NCBI GenBank assembly: GCA_034520565.1
Contig: JAXHNL010000002.1
Location: 1-64,000 of the forward strand
Source: Halodesulfurarchaeum sp.
GTDB lineage: Archaea; Halobacteriota; Halobacteria; Halobacteriales; Halobacteriaceae
Direction of reading: 5' to 3'
Length of the DNA: 64,000 bases
Shown: piece after piece, positions 13,524-64,000 of the stretch
How positions within the stretch are numbered: position 1 is the stretch's first letter
Layout of the letters: each line of letters begins with the position of its first letter
Translations under genes and position numbers: made by a program
The notes under the pieces: generated by a model
The model's input: the letters and a program-made list of their open reading frames with translations, nothing else
Databases searched by the model: none
Told to the model about the DNA's origin: nothing

Positions 13524-13621
13524 TCCAGGGACTGAAATGTTTTGCCTCTTTGAATCTCCTGATTTCTGTGTCGAACTGAGAACTGGGATTTGGTCGGAAA
13601 GACGTGGTATTCCTGAGAGAA

Positions 13622-15467: not shown

Positions 15468-15492
15468 TTTCCGGAACTCGTAGCCAAATACC

Positions 15493-22956: not shown

Positions 22957-23212
22957 ACCGAACTGAAGATGAAGTAGAGGCTTAAAGCTATTCCCCCGTT
23001 TGTTGATAAAACAATTTCGGTCCCAGGCACCCAAAATATGAGACCGTTGAAAGAGCCGCAAAGGTATACTCTGAAAGCTGATCGTCACACCCCAGGCTTC
23101 CACCCAATTGGGGAAAATTAGCTTCTGAACCGAGTCTTAGCCTTGCGGTTAGATCACCTATAGATTTCACCGGTAGATTCAATACGTTTTCCAGTAACCA
23201 TCTGGACGGGTT

Positions 23213-24091: not shown

Positions 24092-24210
24092 AGGACCGGC
24101 GTGTCACAATCGACTCGAAGGAGTCGCCAACAGAAATCTGTCAGTGCGGAATTTCACCGTGCAGTCAGACTGAACGTTTATATCCAAGAAGCACAATTTC
24201 GTGTTCAGGA

Positions 24211-25449: not shown

Positions 25450-25536
25450 GACCGTTTCCTCCGGGATTCAGTAGCAAATAGCCTCGAACGGGTTCTCATA
25501 GTGTGTCCGACTCGATCCGAAGACCTGAAGCGATAC

Positions 25537-26505: not shown

Positions 26506-26623
26506 AAAATCCAAGAGGGACGTTACCGTATTGAATGCTTGGATTCGAAACGGAGCGGGCCCCGGACTGACACCGTCCAAAATCACCGGTCGCGTGGGGG
26601 CCAAAACGGATTTCCGGATCCTG

Positions 26624-27526
26624 TTACTGTACCGGCTCACCTGGAACGCCGGGCGTGTCCGGGTCGTTCTCGTACTGAGTGGCATCGATTTCGGACGCCT
26701 CGATCTCCTCTACCACGCGCAGACTCTGTTCGAATTGAGTCAAGATATCCGTACTGCCCTCTCCGGGGCGTGGCGTTTTGAAGTTCTTGATCGAAACGGG
26801 ACTCGCAACACGAACGATTTCGGGCATTTCGGGGGTTCGAACGACGTCCTGGTACCAAAACGCGTGGATATCCATCGGTTGTCCAGTAACCTCGCGAATC
26901 GCACCCAACATCGGAATCGTCAGGTCACGGGCCGGATTAATACTGTCGTGTGACCCCAGTTTGTCCGACCAGAACTGCATCGATGCGGGATTGGCGATCT
27001 GGAACGCCGAAGATAATTTGAAAACCGTATCGGACGGTAGCAAGCCATCGTCCCGCATTCGAATCGCTACCTGCAACAGCCCCTCATCTTGGAGATTGAA
27101 TCCTCGGCACCCAAGCTCCGTGGCCCGCTTCATTTCGTCTAGTGTATAGACCAATGTGTCTTCGCCACGCAGTTTACCTCCAGGCATCGCACCCAGCGCC
27201 ATCTGTTGACTATTGTCACAGGCCTTGTGGCCCCGTCCGGGCTCCATCAGGAGTTGGACGTCATTCTCCCGGGCGATTCGACACTTCTCCAGGATTGTTT
27301 CTTCACTATCGAAGGTGGTTCCGGTCACGTCGACGATCTTGTTGACCTGAACGCCTGCAGTCTCCGCCTTTTTCAGGAGAGCCTCGTACTCCTCGACAGA
27401 GCCCGGAAGCATCTCGATCTTGAAGTCCGATCCATCCGGGTACTGGTATGCCGATGCCGTCCGTTCGTACGCGTCACTGACGGGAAACTCCAAGTCAGCG
27501 AGGTAGGACCGGATGACGTCACTCAT
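26624..27526 (-). CDS. Conserved hypothetical protein, probable TIM barrel (resembles so-called U32 peptidase-like proteins)
   Basis: 300-aa acidic ORF co-oriented with its neighbours; YPDGSDFKIE, RATELGCRG...DEGLL, FKLS...NPAS, DSINP, PMDIH, RVASPVSIK. Confidence 0.65.
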   Translation of the reverse strand: MSDVIRSYLADLEFPVSDAYERTASAYQYPDGSDFKIEMLPGSVEEYEALLKKAETAGVQVNKIVDVTGTTFDSEETILEKCRIARENDVQLLMEPGRGHKACDNSQQMALGAMPGGKLRGEDTLVYTLDEMKRATELGCRGFNLQDEGLLQVAIRMRDDGLLPSDTVFKLSSAFQIANPASMQFWSDKLGSHDSINPARDLTIPMLGAIREVTGQPMDIHAFWYQDVVRTPEMPEIVRVASPVSIKNFKTPRPGEGSTDILTQFEQSLRVVEEIEASEIDATQYENDPDTPGVPGEPVQ

Positions 27527-27831
27527 GATTGTTGGTTCGGGAATCGTGTCTCAGATTCGAGCGATCGAGCTATTGCTTTCTCTGACGGTCGCTGAGCTTG
27601 CACCATTGCAATTTAGGAAGACTGTGGGCCCGGATATAAACATTCCGCCTCGATTTATCGAGCCCGGCCATCACAAAACAGTCCTTCACCTGTCATCGAA
27701 GACCCCCAGCCGGATCGTCCAGGTTTTCCGAGTCAGGTTGCTTCGGAACGTGAAGCCCCGATTGGCCACCATTTCTGTCGAAAGACCGATCCAGAGGGGA
27801 GATAAATCCGTTTCCCCAAACTGCTCTACCG

Positions 27832-29130
27832 TCAGTCCCGGTGTTTGACAACCGCTCCGCCCTTCATCACGATAGACATGTTCTCCGGTCGGAGCGCTTC
27901 GATGTTCTCGTGTGGAAGCCCATCGACAACCAGCAGATCTCCGTATTTTCCACTCTCCAAGGTGCCAACCTCATCACTCCGTTCGAGCGCGATCGCAGAT
28001 TCCCGTGTCGCATGCTCGATAGCGGACATCGGGCTACAACCCCAATCGACCCATAACCGAGCCTCTCTTGCGGTCGCCCCGACGTGTGGTCCAAGGGGCG
28101 GGTAGGAATCGGCACCGAGGGCCATCGGAACGTCCATCTCGAGTGCGTTCTCGAACATCTCCCGTGCGGCTTCGCGGTCCGCCTGGAGGTCTTCGAGATG
28201 CTGGTCGGTGAGATGGCAGGTCTCCGCATTCTGGGGAAACACGATGAACGGCGTCAGCGTTGGAACCAGGCGCGCGCCGTTCTCTTTGATGAGTTCGAGG
28301 GCTTCTTCGTCCGCATACGTTCCGTGTTCGATCGTATCCACGCCAGCCCGGGCCGCACTTTTGATGGCTTCGTTCGATTGGGCATGGATCCCCACAGTCA
28401 TGTCTTTTCGATGCGCCTCGACGACGGCCGCTCGCATCTCCTCCTCGGTCAGCGTCTGGGTGTGCGGGCCGGAAAACGCCGACAGCCAGGATCCCGAGCC
28501 TTCGAGTTTGATGTGGGTAGCCCCCGCTTTGAACATTTCCCGAACTTCCGCGACCATCTCCTGGGTCCCGTTGACCTCCCGTCCGTTCGAGAGGTTTTCG
28601 GTCGCCCGAATCGGTTCGCGATTGTCATCGGACCCACCGGTCGAGGTGATCATCGGACCAGTCGGGTTCACGCGCGGTCCGAGGATGGTTCCGTCTTCGA
28701 CTGCGTCTCGAAGGCTCATCGGCAGCAGATCCCGGCCGGCCATGTCTCGGATCGTCGTCGCTCCCGAGTACAACATGATCTGCAGGTTTTCCGCCGCCTT
28801 GATCGCGTTGTACTCGATAGTATTATCGAACGTGAGCGCCCGGTAGCGACCCATTACCGGGTTCAATTCGGCGTATTGAGACATGTGCGTATGTGCCTCA
28901 ACCATCCCCGGCATGATCGTTTGCCCCTCCACGTCGATCTCGCGTGCGTTCCCTGGCACGTCCAGTTCGTCGGTTGGCCCGACCGCGGTGATTTTCCCGT
29001 CTTCGATGAGGACCCCGCCGTCCTCGATCGGATCGGTTCCCGTCCCGTCGACGAGAACCCCGCCAACGATGGCCACTGGGGTATCTGGAGTCGATTCTAC
29101 GTCCTCTCCGACCGCAACTGTCTCTATCAT
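27832..29130 (-). CDS. Metal-dependent amidohydrolase (paralogue of 3003-4298)
   Basis: MPGMVEAHTH, HIKL, GIHA, EHGTY, GAD, GTLESGKYGDL; GGAGAG ribosome-binding site before ATG 29130. Confidence 0.9.
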   Translation of the reverse strand: MIETVAVGEDVESTPDTPVAIVGGVLVDGTGTDPIEDGGVLIEDGKITAVGPTDELDVPGNAREIDVEGQTIMPGMVEAHTHMSQYAELNPVMGRYRALTFDNTIEYNAIKAAENLQIMLYSGATTIRDMAGRDLLPMSLRDAVEDGTILGPRVNPTGPMITSTGGSDDNREPIRATENLSNGREVNGTQEMVAEVREMFKAGATHIKLEGSGSWLSAFSGPHTQTLTEEEMRAAVVEAHRKDMTVGIHAQSNEAIKSAARAGVDTIEHGTYADEEALELIKENGARLVPTLTPFIVFPQNAETCHLTDQHLEDLQADREAAREMFENALEMDVPMALGADSYPPLGPHVGATAREARLWVDWGCSPMSAIEHATRESAIALERSDEVGTLESGKYGDLLVVDGLPHENIEALRPENMSIVMKGGAVVKHRD

Positions 29131-49200: not shown

Positions 49201-49719
49201 TCAATTATCGCGTGACGAATCTGCTTCGTCGGCGGGACAGAGACATTCGTGTCGCTGGCCGGCCAATTGTACGACAAAATCGTGGATTTGACCCGCCAGC
49301 GTGAGCATCCGTGTCGCAGACTGTTCGGATCCAATGCCTTCCCGGTAGTAGGTTCGAGACCGATTGTTCCGCCAGAGTCCGAGTAGCTTGTCACGAACCT
49401 CGGCGTCGTACAGCCCTGCCTGTTCAGCTCGCTCGTAGACCCGTTCGTGGGACACAAACTCCCCCTCATGCAGCATGTCCCGCTCAAAGAGATAGAACTG
49501 GAGCGTCCGTTCGATCACGCCGAAAGAGGCCTCGATAACCAACGTGTAGTATCCGTCGTCAGCCGCCAAGAATTCCGCCGCTTCGAGGAGTCGGCACGCC
49601 TTTCGGAGCTGTACCAGCGCTGGATCGTCCACGGTAAGTCCCTCCTCTGGGGACTCCGGGGTCCCTCGAAACGCTTCGATCGCATCGTCGAGCGCCGCTT
49701 CGATTGCGCTATTCTCCAT
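49201..49719 (-). CDS. HEPN-like protein (paralogue of 48263-48772)
   Basis: QLRKACRLLE, DGYYTLVIEASFGVIER, NRSRTYY, ECLC; overlaps the MNT stop. Confidence 0.75.
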   Translation of the reverse strand: MENSAIEAALDDAIEAFRGTPESPEEGLTVDDPALVQLRKACRLLEAAEFLAADDGYYTLVIEASFGVIERTLQFYLFERDMLHEGEFVSHERVYERAEQAGLYDAEVRDKLLGLWRNNRSRTYYREGIGSEQSATRMLTLAGQIHDFVVQLAGQRHECLCPADEADSSRDN

Positions 49720-50374
49720 GGAAAACTGCCTCCTGAACTGCCTCGAGTTCGGCTGATTCCTGGAGGATGATCCCCTCGGAGAGGACCGTCCGGAGCTTCT
49801 CCCCGTACTGGTTCGCACTCTCGACCGACTCGACCATAACCTCGAACTCGTATCGGCTCCCATCGAAGGTCCGATTGCTCAGGTCCTGCCGGATTTCGTG
49901 AATGGTACGACGCGCGGCCATCAGCTCATCCGCCACCACGACGAACAGATCGATATCGCTGGCCCGATCTGCCTCCCCACGGGCCACACTTCCGAAGACG
50001 AGCACCCCGACGACGTTTTCCTGGGCCGCCTGGAGCTCGTCGAGGAAGGCGATGACTGGAGCACGAAACGGTTCCTGTGGGATTTCGAGGATCGGGTCGT
50101 CCGGTTTCCGTATCCGGGCCTGATTGATGCGGACGAGTTTCTGATTTCCCCGTCGCCGCGTCTCGACGAGGTCGAGTTGCGTGAAGAGATCGAGCGCGGT
50201 GTCGACGGTCTGGGCGCCGTGTCCGGTGACGTCCCTGAGTTCGCGGACGCCGAATTCCTCGTGGGGGTTCCGGTAGAGAAGGGACAGGACATCGTCCATT
50301 GCCTGGTTTCGGAACACCCTGGTCGCCGGTAACGGAATGGGGACCAGCACTCCGGGCGTGGGTTGGTCTGTCAT
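49709..50374 (-). CDS. wHTH plus MNT antitoxin-like protein (paralogue of 47575-48270)
   Basis: FGVRELR HTH, PDDPILEIPQ, FGSVARGEADRASDIDL; ATG at 50374. Confidence 0.88.
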   Translation of the reverse strand: MTDQPTPGVLVPIPLPATRVFRNQAMDDVLSLLYRNPHEEFGVRELRDVTGHGAQTVDTALDLFTQLDLVETRRRGNQKLVRINQARIRKPDDPILEIPQEPFRAPVIAFLDELQAAQENVVGVLVFGSVARGEADRASDIDLFVVVADELMAARRTIHEIRQDLSNRTFDGSRYEFEVMVESVESANQYGEKLRTVLSEGIILQESAELEAVQEAVFHGE

Positions 50375-50524
50375 ATTGACCACGGTCAGTATTACGGACC
50401 AAGACGTAAATATATGGCCCCGGTGGGGTTGGATCGAGTCGTCACTCGTTGTTTGGTGGAGGTGAAGGGAGACAGGCAGGCATGGAGGGATTCGGCAGGG
50501 ACAGCAAGCATACACTACTACCGC

Positions 50525-50744
50525 GAAAGCCCCTGGCGCTGTCGAGTCGGTGCGGTCGCTGCTCGCGGGTCGCTCCCGCTCCCCGCTCGCACATTCCGGG
50601 ACTCCCGTTGGTCGTCCCGCGCTCCTCGGTTCGCTTCGCTCACCTGCGGTGCTTACTTCCCGCGCCTTCCCCGACAGGGCGGTCGGCTTGCCGACCGCCT
50701 TATAACGTGGCGGCGAAGCCGCCACGCAAGCGCCAGCCCCTTTC
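50525..50744. repeat. Structured palindromic intergenic element (haloarchaeal small repeat/MITE-like)
   Basis: Outer inverted ends GAAAG..CTGGCGCT / AGCGCCAG..CTTTC; perfect internal hairpins at 50678-50699 and 50706-50726. Confidence 0.6.
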
Positions 50745-50928
50745 AGTCCCGCCCGTCCGTCATTCAAAATCCACATCGATCCGATATGAATCGCGTCTCA
50801 AACATCCCCCTAAATGCCATCGTGAACAAGCTCTCCGGCGGGAAGAATAACTCTATCCGACCATAGTAAATCCAGATCTTCACATCTAGTGACAAGATAC
50901 ATTTCAACGACCCACGTGGCTTCAGACG

Positions 50929-52182
50929 ATGAGTGCTGTGGGAACAGGGGACAAACCGTTGGAGCCCGAGGTGCTGGCTGTCACGAAACAAGCCCTCTTC
51001 CCGCCAAATGCTGACCGTGGGTACGCCGTAACTGACACACAGTTCGCCAAAGAAACCTGGGTGGCTGGCAAACAGATTCCCACCGAAATCCGTGAAATTC
51101 TCACGCCGTTCAATCACGTCCGAATCGGGACCGGATATCCAGACCTAGTGGGGATTGGCCGGCTCCAGGATCGATTTATTCAGGGAGGCAGTACTAACAA
51201 GGTCTCCGAGTCCCGCCCACTCGTTGCAGTTGAGGCAAAAGGGTACACTCAGGGAAATGTCGATGTGGGAAGGGGAATTCTGCAGGCGCACGACCGTCTC
51301 ACTGATGCGAACGTCGTCTATCTGTCTGCCCCCGCCAGCGCCATTACTCCTCCATCCCGTAACCTTGCACGCGATCTCAATGTGGGAATAATCGCCATCG
51401 GGGGGAATGGCGTGGAAGTCCTCGAAACCCCTCGAATCGTGGGGTCCCAAACTCCAGACGCCGCCCGGGCGATCCGGTTTCAGGCCACAGCACACGGGGT
51501 CGCAGACCAGTCCTTCGGGCTAAATCATCCGAAAAATTACCTGGCTTATCCGTTGGCCGAATACCATCCGGAACCCACCGAAGAAATTCTCTCCAGACAC
51601 GTCGTAGGGGCGGTTGATGCAGCTCGACAGGGAGCAGCGTTCCTTGGGTTGGTATACTCATCGCCGAAGGGCACAGTAGAATTGACGAACCTCGGACGGG
51701 AAGTCGTCCGGATCGGGACAGGACTTGAGGGATCAGTGGACGCGGCACTGAGACGGTTCGAGGATTGGCAACGCTCTCGCGAACGATTCATCGATATCGC
51801 AGGGGAGTGGGGGCAATTGGCGAGGTGGGTCGTGTACGAGTACCCCGCCACGGAGTTGCTCGTCGAGCAACTACAGCAATTGCACGATGAGGGAAACGAG
51901 GAACCCACGTTGCAAGAACTGGTCCTCGCGATCCACGACGGACATCCGGTGTTTGCGGTCGAACTATTCATTCGCGGTACCGACACTGCTCGAGAGGCGG
52001 TCTTCCGCGAAGACGATTCGCTCGACCCTGAGGCGCTCTCTAACGGGAATGTATACGCCGCGCCAACTACCTTCCAACTGAAAGCGATGCTCTATCATGC
52101 AGGTATCTTGACGGAGCGAGGGGCGGAGCCGCATCGTCTAAACCCGACTGAAGACGTGTGGCAGCTTCGGACGCCGGTTTGA
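50929..52182 (+). CDS. Hypothetical protein with N-terminal PD-(D/E)XK restriction-endonuclease-like motif
   Basis: 417 aa; GYPDLVG...LVAVEAKG...GILQA; LTNLGRE suggests a winged helix. Confidence 0.7.
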   Translation: MSAVGTGDKPLEPEVLAVTKQALFPPNADRGYAVTDTQFAKETWVAGKQIPTEIREILTPFNHVRIGTGYPDLVGIGRLQDRFIQGGSTNKVSESRPLVAVEAKGYTQGNVDVGRGILQAHDRLTDANVVYLSAPASAITPPSRNLARDLNVGIIAIGGNGVEVLETPRIVGSQTPDAARAIRFQATAHGVADQSFGLNHPKNYLAYPLAEYHPEPTEEILSRHVVGAVDAARQGAAFLGLVYSSPKGTVELTNLGREVVRIGTGLEGSVDAALRRFEDWQRSRERFIDIAGEWGQLARWVVYEYPATELLVEQLQQLHDEGNEEPTLQELVLAIHDGHPVFAVELFIRGTDTAREAVFREDDSLDPEALSNGNVYAAPTTFQLKAMLYHAGILTERGAEPHRLNPTEDVWQLRTPV

Positions 52183-52212
52183 CGTCCTCCCCGCGCTAGT
52201 GCGCGAGGGATC
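52179..52212 (-). mobile_element. IS200/IS605-family right-end remnant
   Basis: Minus strand reads GATCCCTCGCGCACTAGCGCGGGGAGGACGTCAA: a subterminal hairpin followed by TCAA. Confidence 0.55.
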
Positions 52213-52241
52213 GGTTTCAAAGGTCTACGGGATTAACTGGG

Positions 52242-52625
52242 GATCAGCGGGAGGAGCTGACCGACGACTACGGACGGCATCCGCTTGTCACAACAAAACA
52301 AGGTCGTCCCGCTGCGTTGATTATTAGCAAGACCTGTTACAAGTGGTCACGCCCGTGCAAAGTGGGAGAAGGCTGTCCGCATGGCCGAAATCCGGATGAG
52401 TGCGTTGCTGTTGTCGAAGTGACCAAGCTAACGCAATGTCCATCGAGTGAAGCCTCGCACGCATTCCGCCGGGGCGGGATCACGCACCATCTCTCCAATT
52501 GCGTGCCCCAGAACGCGGTCAGCGAACGGGCAGACGTGAGTGGCGACGTATTGGAGACTCATTACGACCAGCGGACGCAGAAGGACAAGATGGAGCAGCG
52601 GCGGCAGTATCTGAATCGGTCCTGA
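52242..52625 (+). pseudogene. Tyrosine integrase C-terminal fragment
   Basis: DDYGRHPLVTTKQGRP...YKWSRPC..CPH..C..CPSS..HAFRRGGITHHL...HYDQR; N-terminal half absent. Confidence 0.88.
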
Positions 52626-52858
52626 ATTGGCTCCTAAACCGGTTCAATTTTGCCGATCCTCGGTCCAATCTTGTTATGTTGAGTTCTTATCGAGTGACCA
52701 TAGTTTCCCTAACTGGATTGTTGCCAACCTGCCACCATACCACTTTCAGTCCCTGCATTGGTTTTAGGGCAGTTCAGACCAAAAGGAACATGTATGTGGG
52801 GGAATCGGTCAATAAGAAACAGAGAACTTGGGTTGCAGAGCCCCTCTGTCAATAGCCT

Positions 52859-54031
52859 ATGAAATTTGAACCCTCGGCGATTAAGAAAGAGGAGACAGAG
52901 GAGATTATCGACACTCTCATTAGTCATGTTACTAAATCGGACGAGGAAATCGTACAGGAAGCCGAAAAGAAGCGAAAATCAACAGAACTGAAAGTTTTCA
53001 TAGCGGATAATACCGGCTTCGAACTAGGCACAATCAACTCGAAATTGCAGGAATTGTATAGCAATGGGAGTCCGTCAGACTACGTGATTAATTTCATTGA
53101 TGATCATACCTTTGAGGAGGAGATCCTAAACGGAGACGTATCGTATTTAGAGATCCAAACCCCGAAGTATTCGAGGGTCGACCAATTCATTCTGCTAGAA
53201 AAAGAAGACTATTTGAGAGTTCTTACGGTTGAAAGGAGATATTGGACAAAGAGGACCATTGAGCGGTTAATCCGGTATTTGCCTGGTTTGGATAGAATTT
53301 TCCTTTCCTCGGAAGACTTGGAAGAAACAGTATTAGAAGAGGAGGATAACACGCATTTATCTGGATTTACTGCAAAGCATAAACCCTACTACTCAGAAAA
53401 GGAATTGAGTATCCAATTTCATGGAGGAGAGGAAAGCGACCTCCGGAAAGTTGAATCTGAATTTGATGCGAGACCTACTAGAGTTGAATTCGGGCAAAAG
53501 AACAGTCCCACTGATGCCGTAAAGGGCGCTGTAAGGCAAGACGGCTACTATTCAATTCCTACGATTCGGGCTGGATCTGAAGAACTGGGTTACCAGACGA
53601 TTATGAGTATATCGGATAGCTTGGAAAATCATGATCGAGCGAATTTCGACATTGGGCATCGGCCAAGACAGGAATTCGAAGAAGGGTTCTCGATTGAGGG
53701 ATATACACGTATCCTGCTCAATGAGGAAAGTGAAGGGAGAAGTGACATCGTCACCGACGGTGGTCGTGAAGAGCTTATTGAAAAGCTGGAGGAGAATATC
53801 CTGGACTATAAACAGAGGTACAAATACTCCGTTTGGGATGACGGGGACTTTCATGTATTTGATACCGAGACTCGAGTCCCCTTCCAGGTAGGTGTTGAGG
53901 GAAAGGATCTCGTATTGTTTGCAAAACCTGCGACAACGTCTAAGGCGTTGAGGGAATTCAGCAGGATTGTGTTGGAAGAGTTCAACTCCACGTATTCCTT
54001 TGAAAAGGAATCACAGCAACTTTCCATATAG
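52859..54031 (+). CDS. Hypothetical protein (390 aa, acidic, low GC)
   Basis: Long clean ORF, 3 nt upstream of the next gene; no motif recognised. Confidence 0.8.
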   Translation: MKFEPSAIKKEETEEIIDTLISHVTKSDEEIVQEAEKKRKSTELKVFIADNTGFELGTINSKLQELYSNGSPSDYVINFIDDHTFEEEILNGDVSYLEIQTPKYSRVDQFILLEKEDYLRVLTVERRYWTKRTIERLIRYLPGLDRIFLSSEDLEETVLEEEDNTHLSGFTAKHKPYYSEKELSIQFHGGEESDLRKVESEFDARPTRVEFGQKNSPTDAVKGAVRQDGYYSIPTIRAGSEELGYQTIMSISDSLENHDRANFDIGHRPRQEFEEGFSIEGYTRILLNEESEGRSDIVTDGGREELIEKLEENILDYKQRYKYSVWDDGDFHVFDTETRVPFQVGVEGKDLVLFAKPATTSKALREFSRIVLEEFNSTYSFEKESQQLSI

Positions 54032-54034
54032 ACT

Positions 54035-54937
54035 ATGTCGGAGTGGGAGCGTCAGAAAAGAGAAATCGACTTCTATAATGTGTTTCATTCAGCGCTTGCA
54101 GGGGAACCCGGTGGTTCTGGTCTGATTGATTACGGCTATAGGTTGCTAGGACCTTTCATGCCCTTGCAAGATAATCAGAATTCTGTCGAGGTTGAGCCTG
54201 ATATTTCCATTTTTGATGGGGAGACACTCTTTCTTCTTGAACTGAAGTCGGGTAGCAATATTTCGGCAAACCATTTGGAGCAGATGGATGACTACTCAAA
54301 AGTGGGCCTTGAGGCCGCTGAAGGTTTCTTAGACGATACAGGGGTATCTGACCGAAAATCTGTGGAGAGAATTGATTTCAGCATTGTATACCGAAAAGAG
54401 TTGATTGAGAAATGTAGAATGGGCCGTTTGGGTAACTGTCTTGAGAGGCTTAAGTCACTGCGACAAAAAACAGCGATTCTTACTCAAGAGAAGGGGAAGC
54501 GGCTAAAAAAGGAGGGTGGAGTCGAACTAGCTGACAGCAATTTAGAAAGGATATTGAATAACGGGATATCTTTACCGCGAGTCCCGGAGCGAGTGTTTCA
54601 TTTATCCGAAAATATGGAAAAGGAGTCAATCGCATTCTCTATTTGCCATGACATAGTAATCAATAACTTGGTGGGTAGGTTCACGCTAACTCCCGTTCAG
54701 GTCTCAAATTTCTACGGTCCTCATAGGTCCCCACCAGTTGACAGGATTAAGACTACAATGGACTATCTGAATGAGATAGGAGCTTGCACGTACAACCAAG
54801 AGGAAGGTGAGTATCTGTTTACAGAACATCATGAAGAAGAAATTCTAAACATTGAAAGTCATCTTCGAAGTCAGAGGGTGGAGGAAACTCTTTCTGGTTC
54901 AGATGATGGGCAGGCAGAACTGGTAGAGTTTTCTTAG
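54035..54937 (+). CDS. Hypothetical protein with PD-(D/E)XK nuclease-like motif
   Basis: VEPDISIFDGETLFLLELKSG...QMDDY; the C-terminal region looks like a winged helix. Confidence 0.75.
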   Translation: MSEWERQKREIDFYNVFHSALAGEPGGSGLIDYGYRLLGPFMPLQDNQNSVEVEPDISIFDGETLFLLELKSGSNISANHLEQMDDYSKVGLEAAEGFLDDTGVSDRKSVERIDFSIVYRKELIEKCRMGRLGNCLERLKSLRQKTAILTQEKGKRLKKEGGVELADSNLERILNNGISLPRVPERVFHLSENMEKESIAFSICHDIVINNLVGRFTLTPVQVSNFYGPHRSPPVDRIKTTMDYLNEIGACTYNQEEGEYLFTEHHEEEILNIESHLRSQRVEETLSGSDDGQAELVEFS

Positions 54938-55133
54938 GTACTGTATCATATAGGTTGGGTAACAACCTTGCCAAATCGATATTTTAATTCTTTTCATTGT
55001 TGACCATCCCCATCTCGACCATCCGAGTAAGGTGAGATTTTTACCAGAATTCCAGATATCAGGGTGAGTCCTAATATAATCTAAGTCATTAACTAATTCC
55101 TTCTCTTATAATTATTTGAACCCGATTAGCCAA

Positions 55134-57633
55134 TCAATTCCAATTAATATCATATTTTTGTCGACAATTACACCTCAATTCGTGGTAACCGTCAAATCTC
55201 TCATACCTAATTGATGACCCACACTCGTCACAGTACAGTAAGTCATAGGCTTCCTTATGGGCCTCAAACACTTCTTCAAATTCTGCCGGTCCGAGGGTCA
55301 ACCACTTTCCAGGTGTCCAGTGTACTCGCCGGTTTATTTTCTGTAGGTTTTGCCCCACGTTATCCAGAACACGGCCATATGCGTCATCTAATTCCCCCGC
55401 AGCTTCGAACATCTCTTCATCCTCTTCATTTTCGGGTGGATGGAGATTATCCCGGGCCTTGCCCGTCAAGTCTCCTAGGCGTCGGCTAACCGCGCTCTTG
55501 AAATCACCGACTGTGTGTCTTTGTCTTGGATCATATTCGATTTTGGCACCTATAGCTACGGCTGTTTGTTGTAGCATCCGTTCCAAAGCGTACCTGAGTT
55601 CATGGGCAGCTCGTTGGGTCTCATCATCGTCCATTGCTTCTTGAACTGTTTCCCACTGTTCTTCAACGTCAATCCGACGACGACTCTCTGTGATTCCTCC
55701 CTCAAACGACCATTCCCGCAACCATATTTGGCTACCCCCTCTAAGAACACCTTGAGATTTCAGCTGCTCTGCCCACAATTCATCATGGGTTGTAATGATT
55801 ATCTGATATTCTTCTGAAAACTCATCCGCAAGGAGTTTAGCGATTTCTAGACGGTGATCCTGATCAACGGACATCACAACGTCATCAAGCAACAACATTG
55901 AACGATTGCCTTGCTGTAAATAATCAGTCAATGCGAGATGGAGACACAGTCCATAGGTATCCAAGTGGCCCTCACTATGGATGGCATGTGGGGGATATTT
56001 CCCCGTCTCATAGAAATCCTTCTCAAGCTCCGCTCCCGTGTTGGTTATTTTGATTGAAGTCTCTGTGTCAATCTCATCGGGATGAATTCTGGCATAATAT
56101 GATTCGACGCGTTCGGCAATATCGTCATATATTTCCCCAATCACTTCTCGTCTTGCCTGTACAAACGCAGAACGAGCCTTTTCTGCAGCATCCGCAAGGA
56201 ACTCCAGTTCAGACACTCGATTACCTAATCTTTCATACTCTTCCCAATTATTTGCCAGTGTCTGGATTTTCTCATACTGCTCTTCTTTTTTGGTCAGATC
56301 TTCCAATTCATTCGCCTTTTCCACGAGAGTATCGCTGTCTTCTACCACTTCTTGGAAGTCGGCCGTTAGTTTACTATCCAATATTGAAAGAATGGGTATT
56401 TCATCGGGATCAAAACCATCTGGCTCAAGTATGTCCCCTGTTAGGAAATCAATTGTTTTGGAGACATCATCCGAGAATTCCACAAGGGATTCCCCTTCAG
56501 GATTTTCTTCAATATTCAGTTCTCTTGTGAGATATTTCAGGTGCTCTTGCCCGGATCTGAGGAAATCTTGAACATCGCTTTTCTCCTTTTCAATAGCACT
56601 CCGCAGCTCTTGAACCGACTCCAGTTCTTCTCGTCGTCTCCTAACAGCTTGAACTAACGGTCTCGATTCGGTCCACCCTTGCTCACAAAGTGGACATCGA
56701 TCAGCATCCGGTTCAATTACACTTTCTCCTAGTTCGAGTAAATCGAGATACTTTGCATCAACTTCAGAAGACTCCATTTCTCGCAACTGATTGATTTTAT
56801 CTTCAAGCGACTTTGCAGAGTTGGGAATTTTATCTTCAGCTTCCACAACCCAATCTGCAAACGACTCAAGCTCATCATGGAAGGGTTTCCTTTGGAGTGC
56901 TTCCGTTGTTGCAGTCTCCACTGGTGATTTTATTCCATCTCTAACAGTGTCTGCATCAATTTCCTTTACCGAACTTCCTTCGAAATTGGCCCGAAGTTCA
57001 TTTATTCTTGACCGGACTTTGTGACGAAGTGAGTCTGTAGCTTGTACCTCTGCATCAGTCAAATCCCTCAAACGATTACCCGTGGACTCTCTCGAGGCTT
57101 GGGATTGGTCTCTTAACTCCTCCAATTCGTCTCTCGTTCGCTTTAGACTGAGACGTCTTTTGTCGATATCGGGCAAATTCAGGAGATGTGAGAGTACCTG
57201 TCGCCGATCGCTCGGTCGAGTTAGAATCAGGTCTAACAATTCTCCTCGAGTCAGGAGGTGCTGTCCCTGATTTGCTATATTTATTATTTCCTGGAGTTTG
57301 TGAGGAAGTTTCCGTATAATGGGGTCAAGATTTCTCTACCTCGGCAGTCCTTCTAATTCGTTGTTCGGTTTCTGCATCTTGAAATGAGGCAGAAACCACA
57401 CAGGGTCCCTCAGCATCGACATTCGGTATTACTTCTGTTTCATTGATAGCCCCACTTCCCTCACCCGATAAATGTGTAACGCGATTAGTAAGTAAGAAAT
57501 CAATCGCCTCTAATATCGAACTTTTCCCTGAGCCGTTTGGACCAACAATAATCACGTTTTCCCCATCCAAACTTCTTTCAAATGTGCCCTTGACACCACG
57601 AAAATTTTCTATCGTGAGTTCGTTAAGATTCAT
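55134..57633 (-). CDS. Rad50/SbcC/RloC-like ABC ATPase with zinc hook and C-terminal HEPN-like/Zn-finger region; +1 indel near 57330
   Basis: N-part IENFRG...GPNGSGKSS; C-part CPLC, HSEGH signature, LLDDVVMSVD, IITTHD, then LRYALE, INRRVH, CDECG, CNC. Confidence 0.8.
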
Positions 57634-57814
57634 TCTCTATAGAACTCACCTCTATCAAATCATCAACCAGGTTATGAGGTACTTGGTCCGAGGTTATCGT
57701 TTCAGTGATTGTCTCGCCGATTTTTTCGTCATTAACTGTTTGTTCAATCTTTGCTCGGAATTCCTTGAAGATCTCTTCCTCAATCTCTTCGGAACTTGCA
57801 CCAGGGTCCACCAT
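57623..57814 (-). CDS. Small acidic protein overlapping the ATPase start
   Basis: 63-aa ATG ORF, Glu-rich, with an 11-nt overlap with the ATPase start. Confidence 0.6.
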   Translation of the reverse strand: MVDPGASSEEIEEEIFKEFRAKIEQTVNDEKIGETITETITSDQVPHNLVDDLIEVSSIENES

Positions 57815-57911
57815 AATTTACACGACCAACCACTCAAGAGATCGGTATAATCCTTGCCCAAAATTGGTATAATAAATTAGGCATAAATATCTGCATTTCA
57901 GTAATTTCCAG

Positions 57912-59007
57912 CTACGTTATATCTTTTAGCACCTGCTGCCGTTGCTTCATCTTATCCTCTTCAGAGCGGACGTCGTAGTGCTGATCGATGATTCCGGGAG
58001 ACACGTTACACCGGTCACTTACGACGTCCTTTGCTACTCCCGTATGCAGTAGATGGGTGATGTAACCCCGACGAATCGGGTGGGGCGAAACACTCGACGG
58101 ACACTTCGAGGCCTGGGAAGCCCCTGACACCACATCACACTCATCTGGGTCTCGATGGTGAGGACACCCAGCACCGATCTCGCAAGGCCTCGACCACTTG
58201 TAGATATACTTCCGAATGGTAGACTTCGCGGGGCGGCCTTGCGAGGTCGCCAGCAGTGGTTCTCTACCGGTATCGGCCGTCACATCCGGCCGCTGATGGT
58301 CAAGGTAATCATCGATAACCGCTACAACCACTTCGTCAATTGCCACCGGCCTCTCTCCGTTCTGCCCGTTCTTGATGGCGGTCCCAGTGTCCGGTCGGTG
58401 GTTGATGTCCAGATGGGGTACGTCCGCATCCGGATTGTAGTCCTCGATGTCCAGCGAATGTGCTGCCCCCATTCGCATCCCAGTCTCGGAGAGAATGAGC
58501 CAGATGACGTGTTCAACGGTCGCATATTCGAATAAATCGAGATAGTCCAGTATCTCCTCGGCTCTCTCGGGGTGGAGCGTGGTGTCACTGGCTTTCTCGC
58601 CGTCGGGGACGGTTGGGACATTCACCTTGTGGTAGAGTCCCTGCGAGACCGCATCGATCGATTCGCACCACTGGATGAACACCCGGAGCGTTGCCATTTG
58701 GGTCCGCTCTGAAGAGATATTGAGCCCTTCTCGACGCCAGGCCTGGAACTCGTGCATATCCCGGCCGGAGAGGTCGTTTAGATCTGTCGATCCCCTCCTC
58801 ACGACACCAATCGACGAAGAAACCCAGCCTGGACCGGTGCCCTTTGACCGTCTCCGCAGCACAGTCTCGTTTCCGGTCATCGAGATACATATCGACAGCC
58901 TTGCCAGGTGAGATGGGTTGAAGTGTCTCTCCTGACTCGTCGAGGATATCCCGTAACGTATCCTCGATATCGGACTCCTCAGCGATACTGGGGACGACGT
59001 TTGGCAC
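57912..59007 (-). CDS. Haloarchaeal tyrosine recombinase/integrase (SNJ2-like type); +1 indel near 58786
   Basis: N-part PISPGKAVDMYL...HRSRLGFFVDWC; C-part TGMRMG (R), IKNG (K), HPIRR (HxxR), HYD (Y), Cys-rich RPC..CPH insert. Confidence 0.9.
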
Positions 59008-59013
59008 TGTCGG

Positions 59014-59196
59014 TTACTCCAGGTCGTTTGAACATCTTTTGAACCGAGAACTCCGTGGCTCTTCCTCCTCGAGATAGTCTTCGAGTATCTCCCGGAGATA
59101 TTCCGACTGGTTCTTTTCGCTCTCTGCGATCTCCTTTTCGAGTTTGCGTGCCTGTTCAGGTGGCAGGCGAGTGGCGAATGCACGTAGCAGTCGTGT
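59014..59196 (-). CDS. Ribbon-helix-helix (CopG-like) small protein; start codon not identified
   Basis: Hand translation RAFATRLPPEQARKLEKEIAESEKNQSEYLREILEDYLEEE...*; stop lies 6 nt before the integrase start. Confidence 0.5.
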   Translation of the reverse strand, partial: TRLLRAFATRLPPEQARKLEKEIAESEKNQSEYLREILEDYLEEEEPRSSRFKRCSNDLE

Positions 59197-59241
59197 TCAG
59201 GTGGGAGAGAACACTACCTAGGACTATTTATCTGCCAGTTC

Positions 59242-59706
59242 ATGGACGTGACCCGAATCGAGATACATGCGAATGCGAAAGGAATCATTGGGGAGTCGCT
59301 TGTTCTTGGGAACCGAGCACTCCCCGAACCAATAGTCGACGAGCTCTTAGGGATTCTCTCCAGGCTGAACGATGTGGGAGAAAATCCTAGGCCTACTGCA
59401 CGGATTCGGCGAAGTGTCTACTTCAATGCCACTGGCGAGGACGGTGGGAAGATGTTTTGGCATTCGGATGGGCGAATCACTATCATCTGGAGTTCACAAG
59501 AAGCACAACGAAATGTGGATCATGAATTCGCGCATCCCGACATAGAAGCAGTGTTTCCAGTAGATGAGAAGACTGGACCACATGCAAAACTAGAGCGGAA
59601 GCAGCGGGAAGTCCCTCGCACAATCGGAAAAACGCCAAATGTTGCATTCCCAACTGTAATCGGAGTTACCATCGAGGAACTTCAGAGGCATTCAATGCTG
59701 ATGTGA
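59242..59706 (+). CDS. Hypothetical protein with HExxH motif
   Basis: 154 aa; GRITIIW strand followed by VDHEFAH (59521-59535). Confidence 0.5.
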   Translation: MDVTRIEIHANAKGIIGESLVLGNRALPEPIVDELLGILSRLNDVGENPRPTARIRRSVYFNATGEDGGKMFWHSDGRITIIWSSQEAQRNVDHEFAHPDIEAVFPVDEKTGPHAKLERKQREVPRTIGKTPNVAFPTVIGVTIEELQRHSMLM

Positions 59707-60206
59707 AAATCTCCACCAGGGGTTTTGAATGAGAACAGGATAATGCGGAGTTAACGACATTATCTGACAATTCAGTTCCTCAATTTGATCTCGAACCAAG
59801 ACCAAGAGTTAGCTAAGTAGGCGGCGCTGTGATCGCAAGCTTGGACATAGTCGGATTGCTTCTCGTTTCCGTGGCCCTACTCGGATTTAATCCGAGGTAG
59901 CAAACTTCTGGCCAAGAAGAGTCCCAACTTCGGGGAAGGAGAAACCGGTATTCAAAGTCTCCCTCGGGGATGGCATTTGTTTTAGTATTATCCGGCCTCC
60001 TCTTGGAGAGATCAAAGCTAATGTTACAACTCGTTATTTTGGGAAATAATTTAACGTTACAAATAATTTCTTTGATGCTGATTTACCGCCCTTAGGCACC
60101 GCTCACCGGAAGCATGTTCTCTTTATTTTCAAAATCGCCCGAGAAGGTTGTATATATGTTTGCTAACGGGGATTGGTTTGATGTGGTTGGGTTCATATTA
60201 TGACGT

Positions 60207-62792
60207 ATGAGTAATAAAGACTCTTTGCGCAATTATCAAGCGGAAGCGGCCAAATCAATTCCCAACACGTCAGGTCAGTACCGGTCGCTAGTGATGCCCA
60301 CAGGTAGTGGAAAGACCAGGGTAGCACTACAGTACGCAGATAATGAGACAAATAAAGGCAAATCCGTTGCTTACATCGTCAACAGCGATGCCCACGCAGA
60401 GCAAGTGTTAGGTGAGGCCGAAGAGATTGGGGTCTCGGCCGAACACATTCCTGGGAGTCATAATGAAGCGGTCCCTGAAGACCGTGTCGAGGATCGAGAT
60501 ATTCATATCGAAGATTATGACCTCGGATTAACAATTGGCATATTTTCATACCATGGGTATTTCTTAGGTAGCGAAGTGCCAAGATCTGATCTATTGATAG
60601 TTGATGATGCCCACGCCTTTAATGGGGAGAGTGTTTCATACTCTTCCATTGTTCTCCATCGTAACGACTGGGGGAGAAAATTTGAGACAATATTGGATCA
60701 TATCATCCGGACTAACCCATTATTAGCACAACAAATTGAAGGGTTAGAGAAGCCCGTTCATTTAAGGGGAGAGACTGTTTTGGTTCCTCCTCCAAAAACC
60801 GGCACTCAAAAAGAAGCTCTTCGCGAGTCAATCCATTCGTTGACCAGCGGGACAGGGTATGAAAAATATCTATTGAGTCAGCGGCTTGATGCATCACCTG
60901 ATTTCTTAAACTGGCCTTGTGTTGTGACGGCGAACTCTATCGTCTGGAGGCCATTTATTCTCCCCTTCGAATCATTTGGGAATCCTCCACATTCGAAAAT
61001 GTCGGAAGACGAAATGCTCCTTATGACCTCTATGCGGGACTCCGAAGAGTATCTTCAGAAACGCTTAGGCTTATCCAACCAAGTCAATACAGTTGATTTG
61101 CCCAAAAAGGCGCCAGAAATGGGTACAAGAATTGTAATTCCATATCCTGAAGTTCGATCCGCAAGCCCACCAAGTCAGAGTCACATCAATATCATTAATA
61201 AATGGACTAAGAAATTCGGGTCGATATTGGTGTCAGTTTCTTCAGACAAAGCATACGGCAGACTCGCTGGTGCAGATAATTTGTATGAAGAAATCACCCC
61301 TCTTCGATACAAATCTGCAAAAAGCATCACTGATTTTGAAGAGATTGAGGAACCGAAGATTTTAGCCCTCGTGAATCGTCCTTCAGGCATTGATATTCCT
61401 TCTGAGATTACGCAGGTTGCAATTCATCTAGAACTCCCACGTTCCACATCTGGTCATGAAAAAGTTGCGGGTGATATCGAAAAATCAGGCACAGTAGCTG
61501 ATGCTAGTTTAGCGGTGAGACTGTCTCAATTGCTAGGCCGGCTTAATAGAAGCCCAGACGACAGGAGTGTTCACCTAATTTTAGCCGGTCAACTCCCATT
61601 TAGAAGTGGTTCTGTTTTTGTCAAATCATTAGACCCAGAGGTCCTGTTGGATCTCATAATCGGCAAGAGAGGGTTCCGCAGAGATTTCGAACTTCCCGAT
61701 GACCCGGATCTAATCGCCCAAGTTATGAAATTCATATCCGGCGATGATCAGCGCCGGAGCAAGTACGCTAATGATGCCGAACAACTCAGACGATCCGTAC
61801 TGAGCGAAATTGATGACTATTCTCCAGGGGTGAATGCTCATGTGAACGCGAATTTGTTTGTTGCGCGAGGCAACTTTTCTGAGGCTGCAAAAGAGTACTC
61901 AACTTTCGCAATAGAGGCTTCAAAAGAAGACTATAATGCTCACGCTTCATTTTATGATTATCAGTCTGTTGCGTACGCCAAAGCAGAAGAGCCCAATGAG
62001 GAAGACCTGTTAGGTAGCAAGCCTGAGGCGGTTATTAATAGGTCTCTCGGAAGAAACCCACCAAGTAGTGCTTTGGTAATGGCTCTTCGTCAATTGAATG
62101 CTGGACAAAGTGAAGAGGCGTCTGACGAAGTTGAAAAATATGCTGTTGAGCTTGACCTCAAAAGGCAGTCGCATTATTCATATTTGAGTTGGGTCGAGGA
62201 TGTCAGTGATGTGATCCCGGATCAGGAAAACCGAACTGATATCAACAAATGGCAAGAGTACTGGCGAAAGAAATTGACCCAGGCCGATCATGACGATCTA
62301 CTTGATGCCTATATCGAGGCAGTTCAACTGTTAGGGACTGACACACCTCATCGAGAGCTTGACAAGAATGATGCGAAAATTGTGTGGAAATCTACAGCAG
62401 ATAGGGATTACTCCATAGCTCTTGAAATAAAAGGTTGGGATCCGGAGAAGCGGGATGACCCTCCAGAACTGAAAGAGGACAATGTTGAACAGGCAAGGAC
62501 GAATGCAGACCACGTTGATGCCGATGCAGTGTTATTAGCAACCTCAAGAAAAGGTCGACAACGGAGAGTGCCAGAGAAAGCCCGACAGATGGGGGTTTCG
62601 ATAGTTCGATATGAGACTGCGATTGCCTTTGCTGATTTGTTGGCCGAACAGTGCGTCGCTATTGAAGAGGTAGAATCTGGCAAAAAAGATTCCTCCGACA
62701 TCCCGTATCATGCCAACAACCTGAAGGAAATGTTATCTAGTTCTGGTGGCGAGATTGACTCCATAGACGTTTCTGTTCTTGGCTCAAATTAA
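60207..62792 (+). CDS. SF2 (DinG/XPD-like) helicase with C-terminal PD-(D/E)XK-like nuclease region (Hna-like architecture)
   Basis: LRNYQ Q-motif, MPTGSGKT, IVDDAH, SGIDIP, QLLGRLNRSPDD; C-terminal NDAKIVW...ALEIKG...NVEQA. Confidence 0.8.
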   Translation: MSNKDSLRNYQAEAAKSIPNTSGQYRSLVMPTGSGKTRVALQYADNETNKGKSVAYIVNSDAHAEQVLGEAEEIGVSAEHIPGSHNEAVPEDRVEDRDIHIEDYDLGLTIGIFSYHGYFLGSEVPRSDLLIVDDAHAFNGESVSYSSIVLHRNDWGRKFETILDHIIRTNPLLAQQIEGLEKPVHLRGETVLVPPPKTGTQKEALRESIHSLTSGTGYEKYLLSQRLDASPDFLNWPCVVTANSIVWRPFILPFESFGNPPHSKMSEDEMLLMTSMRDSEEYLQKRLGLSNQVNTVDLPKKAPEMGTRIVIPYPEVRSASPPSQSHINIINKWTKKFGSILVSVSSDKAYGRLAGADNLYEEITPLRYKSAKSITDFEEIEEPKILALVNRPSGIDIPSEITQVAIHLELPRSTSGHEKVAGDIEKSGTVADASLAVRLSQLLGRLNRSPDDRSVHLILAGQLPFRSGSVFVKSLDPEVLLDLIIGKRGFRRDFELPDDPDLIAQVMKFISGDDQRRSKYANDAEQLRRSVLSEIDDYSPGVNAHVNANLFVARGNFSEAAKEYSTFAIEASKEDYNAHASFYDYQSVAYAKAEEPNEEDLLGSKPEAVINRSLGRNPPSSALVMALRQLNAGQSEEASDEVEKYAVELDLKRQSHYSYLSWVEDVSDVIPDQENRTDINKWQEYWRKKLTQADHDDLLDAYIEAVQLLGTDTPHRELDKNDAKIVWKSTADRDYSIALEIKGWDPEKRDDPPELKEDNVEQARTNADHVDADAVLLATSRKGRQRRVPEKARQMGVSIVRYETAIAFADLLAEQCVAIEEVESGKKDSSDIPYHANNLKEMLSSSGGEIDSIDVSVLGSN

Positions 62793-63389
62793 TCAACCAA
62801 CCAACCTACCCGGCTTCTCCAGCTTCTTTTTCGGACTTTTTAGCCCCATGTTCTCTGCGCACAGAAATGTCCTGTATTGTGCAGCGGTAGATATGACCTC
62901 TGCAAAGAATTGTCTGGGTTTTCTAGCATGTAATACCCAGGGAACAACTCTCTTGTGGGTGAGATAGCGAGGAGAGTTTCCGGAAAGTTCCAAAGGAGAG
63001 GTGTTTGAAGGTTTGTTCACTATGAATTACACATCCTGTAAATTCGAGGTCTTTTTGAAAAATTTTTGATCACAGCCAGCCTAAGGCCAATTGAAGCTAA
63101 GTATCTTTTCCCTTCTTGAGTGCCAATGGGAGGAGAGTTCTGATTCTACAGAATTCATCGCCCTCAAACAACCAAATAGCGCTGCGCACGCTCTGCGCGT
63201 CGCACATTTACCCGCGCCCCTTAGCGGTAACTATTATTGGAGTACCTGGCGAGAGCCCGTGGCAACGGCGGTCGCCGGAGCGGTTGCTACGGGTGGAGAG
63301 CGAGCCCAGAAACGCCGGTTCGGCCTCGGCGACAGTCGCGCTGCGGTCGACCATGAGGACACGGCTGAAGGCACCGCCTGACCTCCGGC

Positions 63390-63631
63390 ACTGACTTTCC
63401 TTTGCTCCCGCACGAGTGCGCAGTTCATCGAAGGCGAGGGCCTCGATGCGGACAAGTTCGTCGAGGGTAGTGTAGAGGATGCTCGCCGTCACCGTTTTCT
63501 CGGCGAATGCGGCGGCGAGGAAGTGGTAGTAGACGCTTAGTTGTTTGCGATACTCGCTCTCAGACCGCCGACTCGCATCTGTTTTGTAGTCGACGGCTTC
63601 GACGGCCTAGTTTGGTTTCGTGGACGAGGTC
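63390..63631 (-). pseudogene. C-terminal PD-(D/E)XK fragment of a UvrD/AddA-like helicase-nuclease
   Basis: Hand translation DLVHE../VEAVDYKTDASRRSESEYRKQLSVYYH; frameshifted, with no upstream gene body. Confidence 0.65.
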
Positions 63632-63798
63632 GCGGGTAGCGAATTAATCCTAAATGGCTTCGGGCAGTGGTTCAGGAAACGGTTGAGAAGCTCAGGGGGA
63701 TGCAGTTGGCGTCGGGGAGCAAGGTAGTTAACCGTCGAGAGGGCGCTCGGGAATTTTGCGTAAGTTGATACCGGAAGATGGCCGGAAGAACGGCTTAG

Positions 63799-64000
63799 AT
63801 GAGAGCAGTCAAATCGATTCTCGAAGCGAAAAGCCTCCGAGTCGGATCGATGTCAATCGGGGAAACTGTCACCGTCGAACTCTCGAAAGAGGAGATGCTT
63901 CCACTTCATATCGAAATGATCGACGTAAACCGTCTCAGTGTCGGCCATTACTTCCGACAACGAGGTGACTTGCTTAGCGACCCCGAAGTCGTCTTCGAAA
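63799..64000 (+). CDS. DUF6908-like protein; 3' end runs off the window
   Basis: MRAVKSIL...MLPLHIE...LSVGHYFRQRGDLLSDPEVVFE. Confidence 0.6.
   Translation, partial: MRAVKSILEAKSLRVGSMSIGETVTVELSKEEMLPLHIEMIDVNRLSVGHYFRQRGDLLSDPEVVFE

Follow-up and report, generated by a model that had tools for sequence, protein, structure and literature searches.

What is the purpose of a Rad50-like ATPase that carries an additional C-terminal domain and is preceded by a tiny acidic protein? The question is raised by a stretch of 64,000 nucleotides (nt) from Halodesulfurarchaeum sp. (GenBank assembly GCA_034520565.1, contig JAXHNL010000002.1, positions 1 to 64,000 of the forward strand), hereafter the window, in which the open reading frames (ORFs) and a three-frame translation reveal a small acidic ORF and such an ATPase as a two-gene pair on the minus strand. 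An initial annotation, made from the sequence alone, had compared the ATPase with RloC, which couples a zinc-hook ATP-binding cassette (ABC) ATPase to a HEPN anticodon nuclease, and had proposed a ribonuclease (RNase) system that senses DNA breaks or viruses in archaea. The pair represents an unnamed family of a known kind, in which an ABC ATPase and a probable HEPN-class effector form one protein. The family is conserved as two genes and patchily distributed, on mobile elements, in defence islands and within BREX loci. On balance we lean towards regarding it as a conserved two-gene antiviral module of the abortive-infection type, working like RloC and Lamassu, with a frame break in the window copy.

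Architecture and spread of the gene pair

The ATPase motifs listed in the initial annotation (Walker A, CPLC, HSEGH and Walker B) are all found on the minus strand (Table 1). The C-terminal motifs that it named as R..LE, N-x3-H and CxxC...CxC are also present, as ELRYALE, INRRVH and CDEC...CNC within the last 186 amino acids (aa), and so is the 63-aa acidic gene that it saw overlapping the ATPase, the stop of the small ORF sitting 11 nt inside an ATPase ORF that begins with an ATG at 57633. Intact homologues of 829-835 aa, 52-58% identical, align over both pieces into which the window ATPase falls, so that the gene is split by one extra base; the N-terminal piece is 59% identical to residues 1-106 of one such homologue (P0002) and the second piece 58% identical to its residues 99-832. 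Dropping one base, as had been suggested, restores a protein of about 831 aa, in agreement with the homologues, and intact relatives range from 815 to 835 aa. Across the family, conservation of CPLC, SEGH, DD and THD is complete or reaches at least 90%.

Profile libraries recognise just the ATPase part of the protein, residues 1 to about 620, through Pfam matches to SMC_N, AAA_23, AAA_15 and AAA_21 and PADLOC matches to LmuB and MADS3. In the full-length AlphaFold model of a close intact homologue (L006; predicted local distance difference test, pLDDT, 83.8), an N-lobe, a helical arm, a hook at CPLC, a return arm, a C-lobe and an extra domain follow one another, and the coiled-coil arms measure roughly 150 residues. 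The top Foldseek match of this model is Rad50 (7zr1, expectation value (E) 4.9e-11), followed by SMC, cohesin, condensin and SbcC heads, with the structure of Lamassu LmuB at rank 36. The architecture of a Rad50-like zinc-hook ABC ATPase is supported by these results.

The family occurs in bacteria as well as in the archaea, for which the system had been put forward. A pattern scan with one genome per species, covering bacteria and archaea, yielded at least 599 candidate stretches and at least 533 confirmed relatives, including members from Planctomycetota, Chloroflexota, Bacteroidota, Actinomycetota, Methanobacteria, ANME-1 and Asgard archaea. The 701-aa piece of the window ATPase matches 580 proteins at E≤0.001 among 8000 scored, and 106 of the best 120 of these 580 are 790-845 aa long. 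The ATPase is present in 17 of 400 other genomes of the window's class and in none of the three same-genus genomes of the sample. Nineteen plasmid records carry the family, among them a conjugative Phaeobacter plasmid; no phage record matched a family member at E≤1e-10.

The DNA upstream of the ATPase was examined in 97 loci, of which 17 are haloarchaeal and 80 come from other phyla. In four of the haloarchaeal loci (L005, L006, L011 and L013), which belong to two distant ATPase clades, the pair is flanked by the end of PglX on one side and by the start of PglZ on the other. On the Halorhabdus tiamatea plasmid pHTIA, the RefSeq gene order is BREX-5 pglX, hypothetical protein, AAA family ATPase and pglZ. 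Among the 123 ORFs that neighbour the pair in 31 further loci, all with complete flanks, no third gene recurs. Clear restriction, defence or mobile-element neighbours are present in 15 of the 31, and about 5 more have probable ones (PLD, HNH, PIN, AAA_5). The clear neighbours include DNA methylases, McrBC, Mrr fusions, DUF499/DUF3780, a Lamassu DUF3732 gene, ParE and HepT, nSTAND3, an ABC-3C domain, integrases and transposases. One locus, on a contig of a Vulcanimicrobiota metagenome-assembled genome (L064), is a dense defence island where the pair stands beside an Hma or BREX-related system (DUF499/DUF3780); another ABC ATPase, of 949 aa and of the AAA_21/AAA_23 type, comes after the pair.

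Distribution and fold together bear on the proposal that the ATPase is a housekeeping paralogue of Rad50 in DNA repair, with a tail that binds nucleic acid or protein without catalysis. RefSeq annotation includes the Gene Ontology term double-strand break repair, and HEPN domains without catalysis are known (PMC3710099). Rad50-Mre11 and SbcCD provide the closest solved structures, with the same head, coiled-coil and zinc-hook design. However, the family has no conserved Mre11/SbcD partner nearby (a Metallophos neighbour, found in one of the 31 loci, belongs to a separate SbcCD-like pair), a much shorter coiled coil and an extra C-terminal domain, and its patchy, accessory occurrence, on plasmids and inside BREX loci, differs from the universal presence of the repair complexes. 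The NCBIfam Rad50 model gives 76.2 bits against a cut-off of 700, with RecF also far below its cut-off, and the invariance of an Arg, a Glu and a His in the tail suggests chemistry over mere binding. A housekeeping repair function is therefore very improbable in our judgement.

The C-terminal domain and its relation to RloC

The 186-aa tail was searched against 1.84 billion representative proteins and matches 187 clusters at E≤0.001. Nearly all of the best 150 matches lie at the C-terminal end of proteins of about 815-830 aa, and the short ones resemble fragments; the domain is therefore exclusive to this ATPase family. The Pfam search found no family for the tail, a comparison with PDB sequences gave no match at E≤10, and the ESM Atlas returned unnamed clusters only, below 0.9. 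Among 55 diverse members, Arg, Glu, His and three Cys are invariant, the Asn four residues before the His is kept in 52 and the fourth Cys (Cys177) in 54. Zinc-finger tail and small gene, initially taken for additions to an RloC-like protein, are instead fixed features of a separate bacterial and archaeal family.

An AlphaFold2 model of the tail (pLDDT 91.3; predicted template modelling score 0.85) consists of five helices and a subsequent three-stranded ribbon with four Cys. The top matches of an exhaustive VIA-align search are HEPN proteins: 2hsb (Z 10.1), the sacsin HEPN domain (9.5) and 1wol (8.4), then 4nqf (8.3), the HEPN toxin SO_3166 (8.2) and Csm6 (8.2), with more Csm6, HepT-type and HepS entries lower down. 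Entries with HEPN in their title take ranks 1, 3, 7 and 9, and the HEPN matches overall span Z 10.1-6.7. Because helical bundles can reach such Z values without kinship, the HEPN fold of the modelled tail is graded as likely, not proven.

The HEPN motif is described as Rx4-6H, in which the Arg is followed by a polar residue (PMC3710099, section 6). In the tail, the Asn of the consensus V-N-x-x-V-H occupies this usual polar position, and the invariant Glu is arranged as R-x3-E, an order also seen in PrrC and RloC, not as the typical HEPN E-x3-[KR]. There are HEPN families whose Arg has given way to a basic residue at another place, and a conserved acidic residue upstream has been noted (PMC3710099, section 6); to go by the motif pattern, the invariant R-x3-E (R34) could stand in for the missing Arg and acidic residue. 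Support for the HEPN-like tail originally proposed comes from the modelled helical bundle, from HEPN proteins as its best structural matches and from the conserved R-x3-E/N-x3-H pair; the canonical Rx4-6H is absent.

RloC is characterized as a zinc-hook ABC ATPase with the motif Arg-X3-Glu-X36-52-His, in which Ser often precedes the His (PMC2610378). The present family agrees with this plan within a single chain: the ABC head resembles that of Rad50, the coiled coil bears a CxxC zinc hook, and the helical domain at the C-terminus contains R-x3-E followed further on by N/S-x-H. The size of its members falls inside the 658-897 aa stated for RloC (PMC2610378). Both are sporadic and occur in defence contexts that include Pgl/BREX operons (PMC3710099). 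RloC-type C-domains, taken from genuine AAA_13 proteins of 8 of 301 Bacillota genomes, read N.ARKFLE...(44-49)...NE.SH, the same kind of motif pair as R-x3-E...N-x3-H, with Val as the residue before the invariant His in our family. Some family members also have precomputed matches to Pfam AAA_13 (PF13166), the family of RloC.

Actual membership in that family is nonetheless very improbable. Three full-length members score 27.0, 29.4 and 28.5 bits against PF13166, below the cut-off of 36, and 161-611 bits are reached by genuine AAA_13 proteins; the alignments of the three extend no further than position 570-595 of the 713 in the profile, and the 186-aa tail has no match. With the PADLOC PrrC model, the match at Walker B reaches just E 0.002. 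All 55 sequences have a Glu-His spacing of 79-87 as opposed to 36-52 in RloC, which makes it about 40 residues longer, and hhalign of the C-domain against RloC-type C-domains gave a probability of 1.9% and E 0.025 with a shallow RloC profile of 7 sequences. An RloC-type protein compared with PDB sequences gave no match at E≤0.001. The zinc ribbon and the obligatory small upstream gene find no mention for RloC in the accessible portions of the literature, and while many archaea carry the present family, the reported figure for RloC is 1 of 45 archaeal genomes. PrrC resembles it in placing a HEPN-class RNase with an Arg-Glu-His triad after an ABC ATPase and in being controlled by a partner protein, but is described as having neither coiled coil nor hook, as 341-416 aa long and as always tied to a type Ic restriction system. 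As far as sequence comparison can tell, the module follows the RloC plan and lies outside the RloC and PrrC families.

The small upstream protein and a possible mode of action

Seven of the 97 loci could not be judged, owing to a missing N-terminus or short upstream DNA. In 89 of the 90 evaluable ones, the ATPase is preceded on the same strand by an ORF of 56-113 aa whose end falls within -21 to +29 nt of the start of the ATPase, the sole locus without it being L093. An overlap of 4 nt with the ATPase is commonest, and an overlap of 11 nt, as in the window, is seen in 11 haloarchaeal loci. Within the window clade, the small ORF keeps its 63 codons without insertions or deletions and has a ratio of nonsynonymous to synonymous substitution rates (dN/dS) of 0.11-0.48; it is therefore a real gene, and its conservation, on which the original proposal depended, is confirmed.

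A profile seeded from the non-halophile small ORFs was scanned against 5150 small ORFs from both strands of all loci. Its matches are confined to the upstream position, in 77 loci at E<1e-3 (the seeds match by construction), and five haloarchaeal loci outside the seed were matched in the first round. After four rounds, 83 loci were covered at E<1e-3, including 11 of the 17 haloarchaeal ones, which are outside the seed. The window clade is marginal to the profile (L007, E 0.0037; L006, 0.0097; L005, 0.025), so that kinship of its small protein rests mainly on position, size and the helix pattern shared in the alignment. The small protein of the window matches no family in PADLOC or NCBIfam, and a homologue returned only unnamed look-alike clusters, below 0.9, from the ESM Atlas.

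A haloarchaeal ATPase subfamily of about 645 aa (L014, L015, P0072, P0102 and P0119) ends right after the ABC head and is devoid of the HEPN-like domain and zinc ribbon, yet keeps the small upstream gene. This indicates that the small protein goes with the ATPase core and not with the tail. One of these genes, L015, carries an in-frame TGA.

These observations set limits to a toxin-antitoxin-like couple, in which direct neutralisation of the RNase domain, or plugging of the DNA groove by a DNA mimic, would be the task of the small acidic protein until a phage cue removes it. The small gene lies upstream, is translationally coupled and encodes a net acidic product outside halophiles (median charge -4; 61 of 69 non-halophile members negative), and in the case of the HEPN RNases RnlA and LsoA, a neighbouring gene encodes the protein that keeps them inactive (PMC3710099). 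On the other hand, retention of the small gene in the tailless subfamily argues against a role tied only to the RNase, and no antitoxin family was detected, no Pfam family recurring among 86 members. We regard such a couple as unlikely.

A second possibility is that the pair is a compacted derivative of Lamassu or SbcCD, in which the small protein would be a minimal subunit resembling LmuC or the SbcD C-terminal domain, placed on the coiled coil or head of the ATPase, and the fused HEPN domain would replace LmuA. Lamassu LmuB is among the Foldseek matches, and LmuB PDLC03859 is the best PADLOC model of the ATPase, with E 1e-30 to 1e-31 over residues 1-620; it ranks first for four of five members (E 1.3e-31 to 2.6e-18) and gives E 4.9e-21 with the second piece of the window protein, a similarity that concerns the ATPase only and comes from a PADLOC model without a curated cut-off. 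The gene order is also similar: like LmuC ahead of LmuB and the SbcD C-terminal domain ahead of SbcC (PMC12663957), the small gene immediately precedes the ATPase, and it stays with the ATPase core where the C-domain is absent. Yet neither an LmuA-like gene nor any other conserved third gene accompanies the pair in the 31 surveyed loci, and Rad50 and SMC heads outrank LmuB in the fold search. LmuC is presumably also longer than the 60-70-aa protein found here. The LmuC of short Lamassu is reported as a globular, DNA-contacting protein. Both systems have an SbcC/Rad50-derived ATPase, acting in defence in Lamassu and presumably also here, with a small gene directly upstream, but the putative effector is fused to the C-terminus of the ATPase here and the effector is a separate LmuA there, and the zinc hook, which is absent in short Lamassu (PMC12663957), is kept in the present family. 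Direct derivation of this kind seems doubtful to us, if somewhat less so than a toxin-antitoxin couple.

In the antiviral module that we favour, the first gene encodes a small, acidic, helical protein of about 60-70 aa, and the translationally coupled second gene a Rad50/SbcC-class ABC ATPase of about 830 aa with zinc hook, probable HEPN-fold domain and zinc ribbon. The ATPase dimer may survey DNA and respond to a nucleic acid or to a protein, with DNA ends or foreign DNA under replication as the likeliest cue; Lamassu is reported to sense DNA ends (PMC12663957). During infection the cue would alter the engagement of heads or hook, and an ATP-driven rearrangement would join two HEPN-like tails. 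The paired tails could then cut RNA (tRNA or mRNA) by means of the invariant His together with Arg, Glu and Asn, bringing translation to a stop. The small protein would tune or gate the ATPase core as a regulatory subunit, either adaptor or gatekeeper, and would not be an antitoxin of the RNase domain.

Several findings weigh against this interpretation. The canonical HEPN Rx4-6H lacks its Arg in the tail, the Arg position being hydrophobic; Z scores of 8-10 can be reached by chance in helical bundles (below about 13, according to the tool's own note); Foldseek found no match for the tail model at E≤0.001; and neither hhalign, with its shallow profile, nor Pfam links the domain by sequence to the C-domains of RloC or PrrC. 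In addition, the family profile did not match the window's own small protein or those of L003 and L004, 11 of the 31 surveyed loci have housekeeping neighbours only, and the window copy may be a dead gene.

A more far-reaching version, which we advance tentatively, makes the pair a self-contained antiviral system of bacteria and archaea. A minimal three-helix subunit, perhaps a remnant of the element by which Mre11/SbcD binds Rad50 or else a DNA-mimic plug, would gate the zinc-hook sensor, the fused tail would cut RNA, and in haloarchaea the system would act as a second line behind a blocked BREX. A comparable arrangement is found in PARIS (AriA/AriB), also an ABC-ATPase-based module nested in BREX loci and thought to act on BREX inhibition (PMC12839542). 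PARIS differs in that AriA is an OLD-type ABC ATPase without hook, the effector is a separate Toprim nuclease and a small partner is absent.

The frame break and the surrounding DNA

The change of frame in the window ATPase is bounded by a frame-1 TGA (57325-57327) and a frame-2 TAG (57336-57338). A programmed frameshift was considered and rejected, as all 16 class relatives with a full-length match and 80 further loci read through this place in one frame. What remains is a choice between an assembly error and a genuine pseudogene, and the probabilities are roughly even, with the former marginally favoured. The source genome is a two-contig assembly of 1.86 Mb with a completeness of 80.7%. Long ORFs (≥250 aa) from two complete same-genus genomes were compared with it, and genes were counted as split under a strict criterion when abutting matches fell in two frames at a DNA distance fitting a small indel. 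By this criterion 12 of 276 conserved ORFs are split in the source assembly and 1 of 101 between the two complete genomes; loosely counted, the figures are 22 of 276 and 3 of 101, and a first pass had given 10 of 131. The excess is three- to four-fold, with small counts, and several of the junctions in the source assembly have short homopolymers. Any single-base frameshift in this assembly therefore needs caution. Apart from the extra base, both ATPase pieces stay open and keep every conserved motif.

That the gene is a real pseudogene and the module inactive in this genome is nearly as plausible as not. The deposited gene call starts at an internal Met and gives a 642-aa protein, one of the 17 class relatives likewise has an internal stop, and accessory defence genes are frequently lost. 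A salt-pan metagenome contains 0.74 of the sampled words of the stretch; its public (Logan) contigs match exactly on both sides and leave 57241-57347 uncovered.

Table 1. Features of the gene pair and of its neighbourhood in the window
Feature	Position	Strand	Basis
Small acidic protein, first gene of the pair; 63 aa, three predicted helices	57623..57814	-	ORF
ATPase, N-terminal piece; 102 codons and stop, ABC head N-lobe	57325..57633	-	Pfam AAA_23, AAA_15, SMC_N
Walker A GPNGSGKS, residues 31-38 of the 102-aa piece	57520-57543	-	ORF
Zone of one-base frame change, AAA run at 57331-57333	57325..57338	-	Three-frame translation, homologue alignment
ATPase, remainder in +1 frame, stop at 55134	55134..57335	-	ORF, homologue alignment, PADLOC LmuB
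CPLC zinc hook in coiled coil, index 181 of the 701-aa ORF	56685-56696	-	
Signature HSEGH, index 420 of the 701-aa ORF	55965-55979	-	
Walker B MLLLDD (MLLLDDVV at index 447-454 of the 701-aa ORF)	55881-55898	-	
H-loop TTHD, index 482 of the 701-aa ORF	55782-55793	-	
Predicted HEPN-like five-helix domain, residues 10-153 of the 186-aa tail	55236..55667	-	Model, conservation
R34 of the tail, invariant	55593-55595	-	
E38 of the tail, invariant	55581-55583	-	
N121 of the tail, conserved ≥90%	55332-55334	-	
H125 of the tail, invariant	55320-55322	-	
C-terminal zinc ribbon CxxC...CxC, three strands, Cys155/158/175/177	55137..55233	-	Model, conservation
Tyrosine recombinase, Phage_integrase	57912-59183		Pfam
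ResIII helicase	60207-62792		PADLOC candidate PDC-S28, E 7.6e-27
Two adjacent ORFs, 390 and 300 aa, convergent with the ATPase; no family above noise	52859-54031, 54035-54937	+	
355-aa ORF, NTP_transf_2/Polbeta nucleotidyltransferase	49709-50776	-	PADLOC candidate PDC-M05A, E 6.2e-19

The pair lies in a part of the window with lowered GC content, which drops from 0.587-0.608 (44-52 kb) to 0.464-0.485 (positions 52000-64000), and which also contains an integrase and a helicase gene (Table 1). Positions 52000-64000 probably represent an integrated element or defence island. Around the integrase, the att-like direct repeats amount to no more than short pairs at chance level, and the window contains no tRNA. 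No PglZ was found in the source genome, at its completeness of 80.7%, and the pair therefore stands alone here.

Two adjacent ORFs convergent with the ATPase could be another two-gene defence candidate; the 300-aa one has weak PADLOC matches, NERD and PD-(D/E)XK-like (E 0.006-0.02). Kinship of the 390-aa one to the gene upstream of the L005 module was rejected (BLASTP E 0.43). The 355-aa nucleotidyltransferase ORF overlaps a same-strand 220-aa ORF (49201-49863) by 155 nt, which may be another frame break. Further away, a stretch of about 1 kb (24384-25418) has copies in the same genome (e.g. C2:1661318-1661725) and in most genomes of the genus, at 67-70% identity, and the rest of the window from 8001 to 28000 has no syntenic counterpart in 11 members of the genus; this stretch is probably an insertion sequence in a variable region.

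Being either broken or mis-assembled, the window copy is less valuable than the family to which it led. Neither Pfam nor NCBIfam (none above cut-off) nor PADLOC 2.0 (distant ATPase matches only) holds a name for it, and RefSeq calls the two products 'hypothetical protein' and 'AAA family ATPase'. The HEPN survey, the RloC papers, the 2026 BREX survey and the 'embedded defences' preprint do not name it in their accessible portions; their supplements or the 2020 ABC ATPase classification may list it. Modules that join an ABC ATPase to a nuclease (PrrC, RloC, PARIS, Lamassu, OLD) are a main theme of prokaryotic immunity, and how a Rad50-like sensor converts a nucleic-acid cue into effector activation is debated. 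The present family offers a compact natural design, with sensor and effector in one chain and one tiny obligatory partner, and is carried by bacteria and archaea alike, among them Haloferax volcanii, which is genetically tractable. Should it prove active, it would lengthen the thin list of defence systems in archaea and provide a small model for hook-dependent regulation of an RNase.

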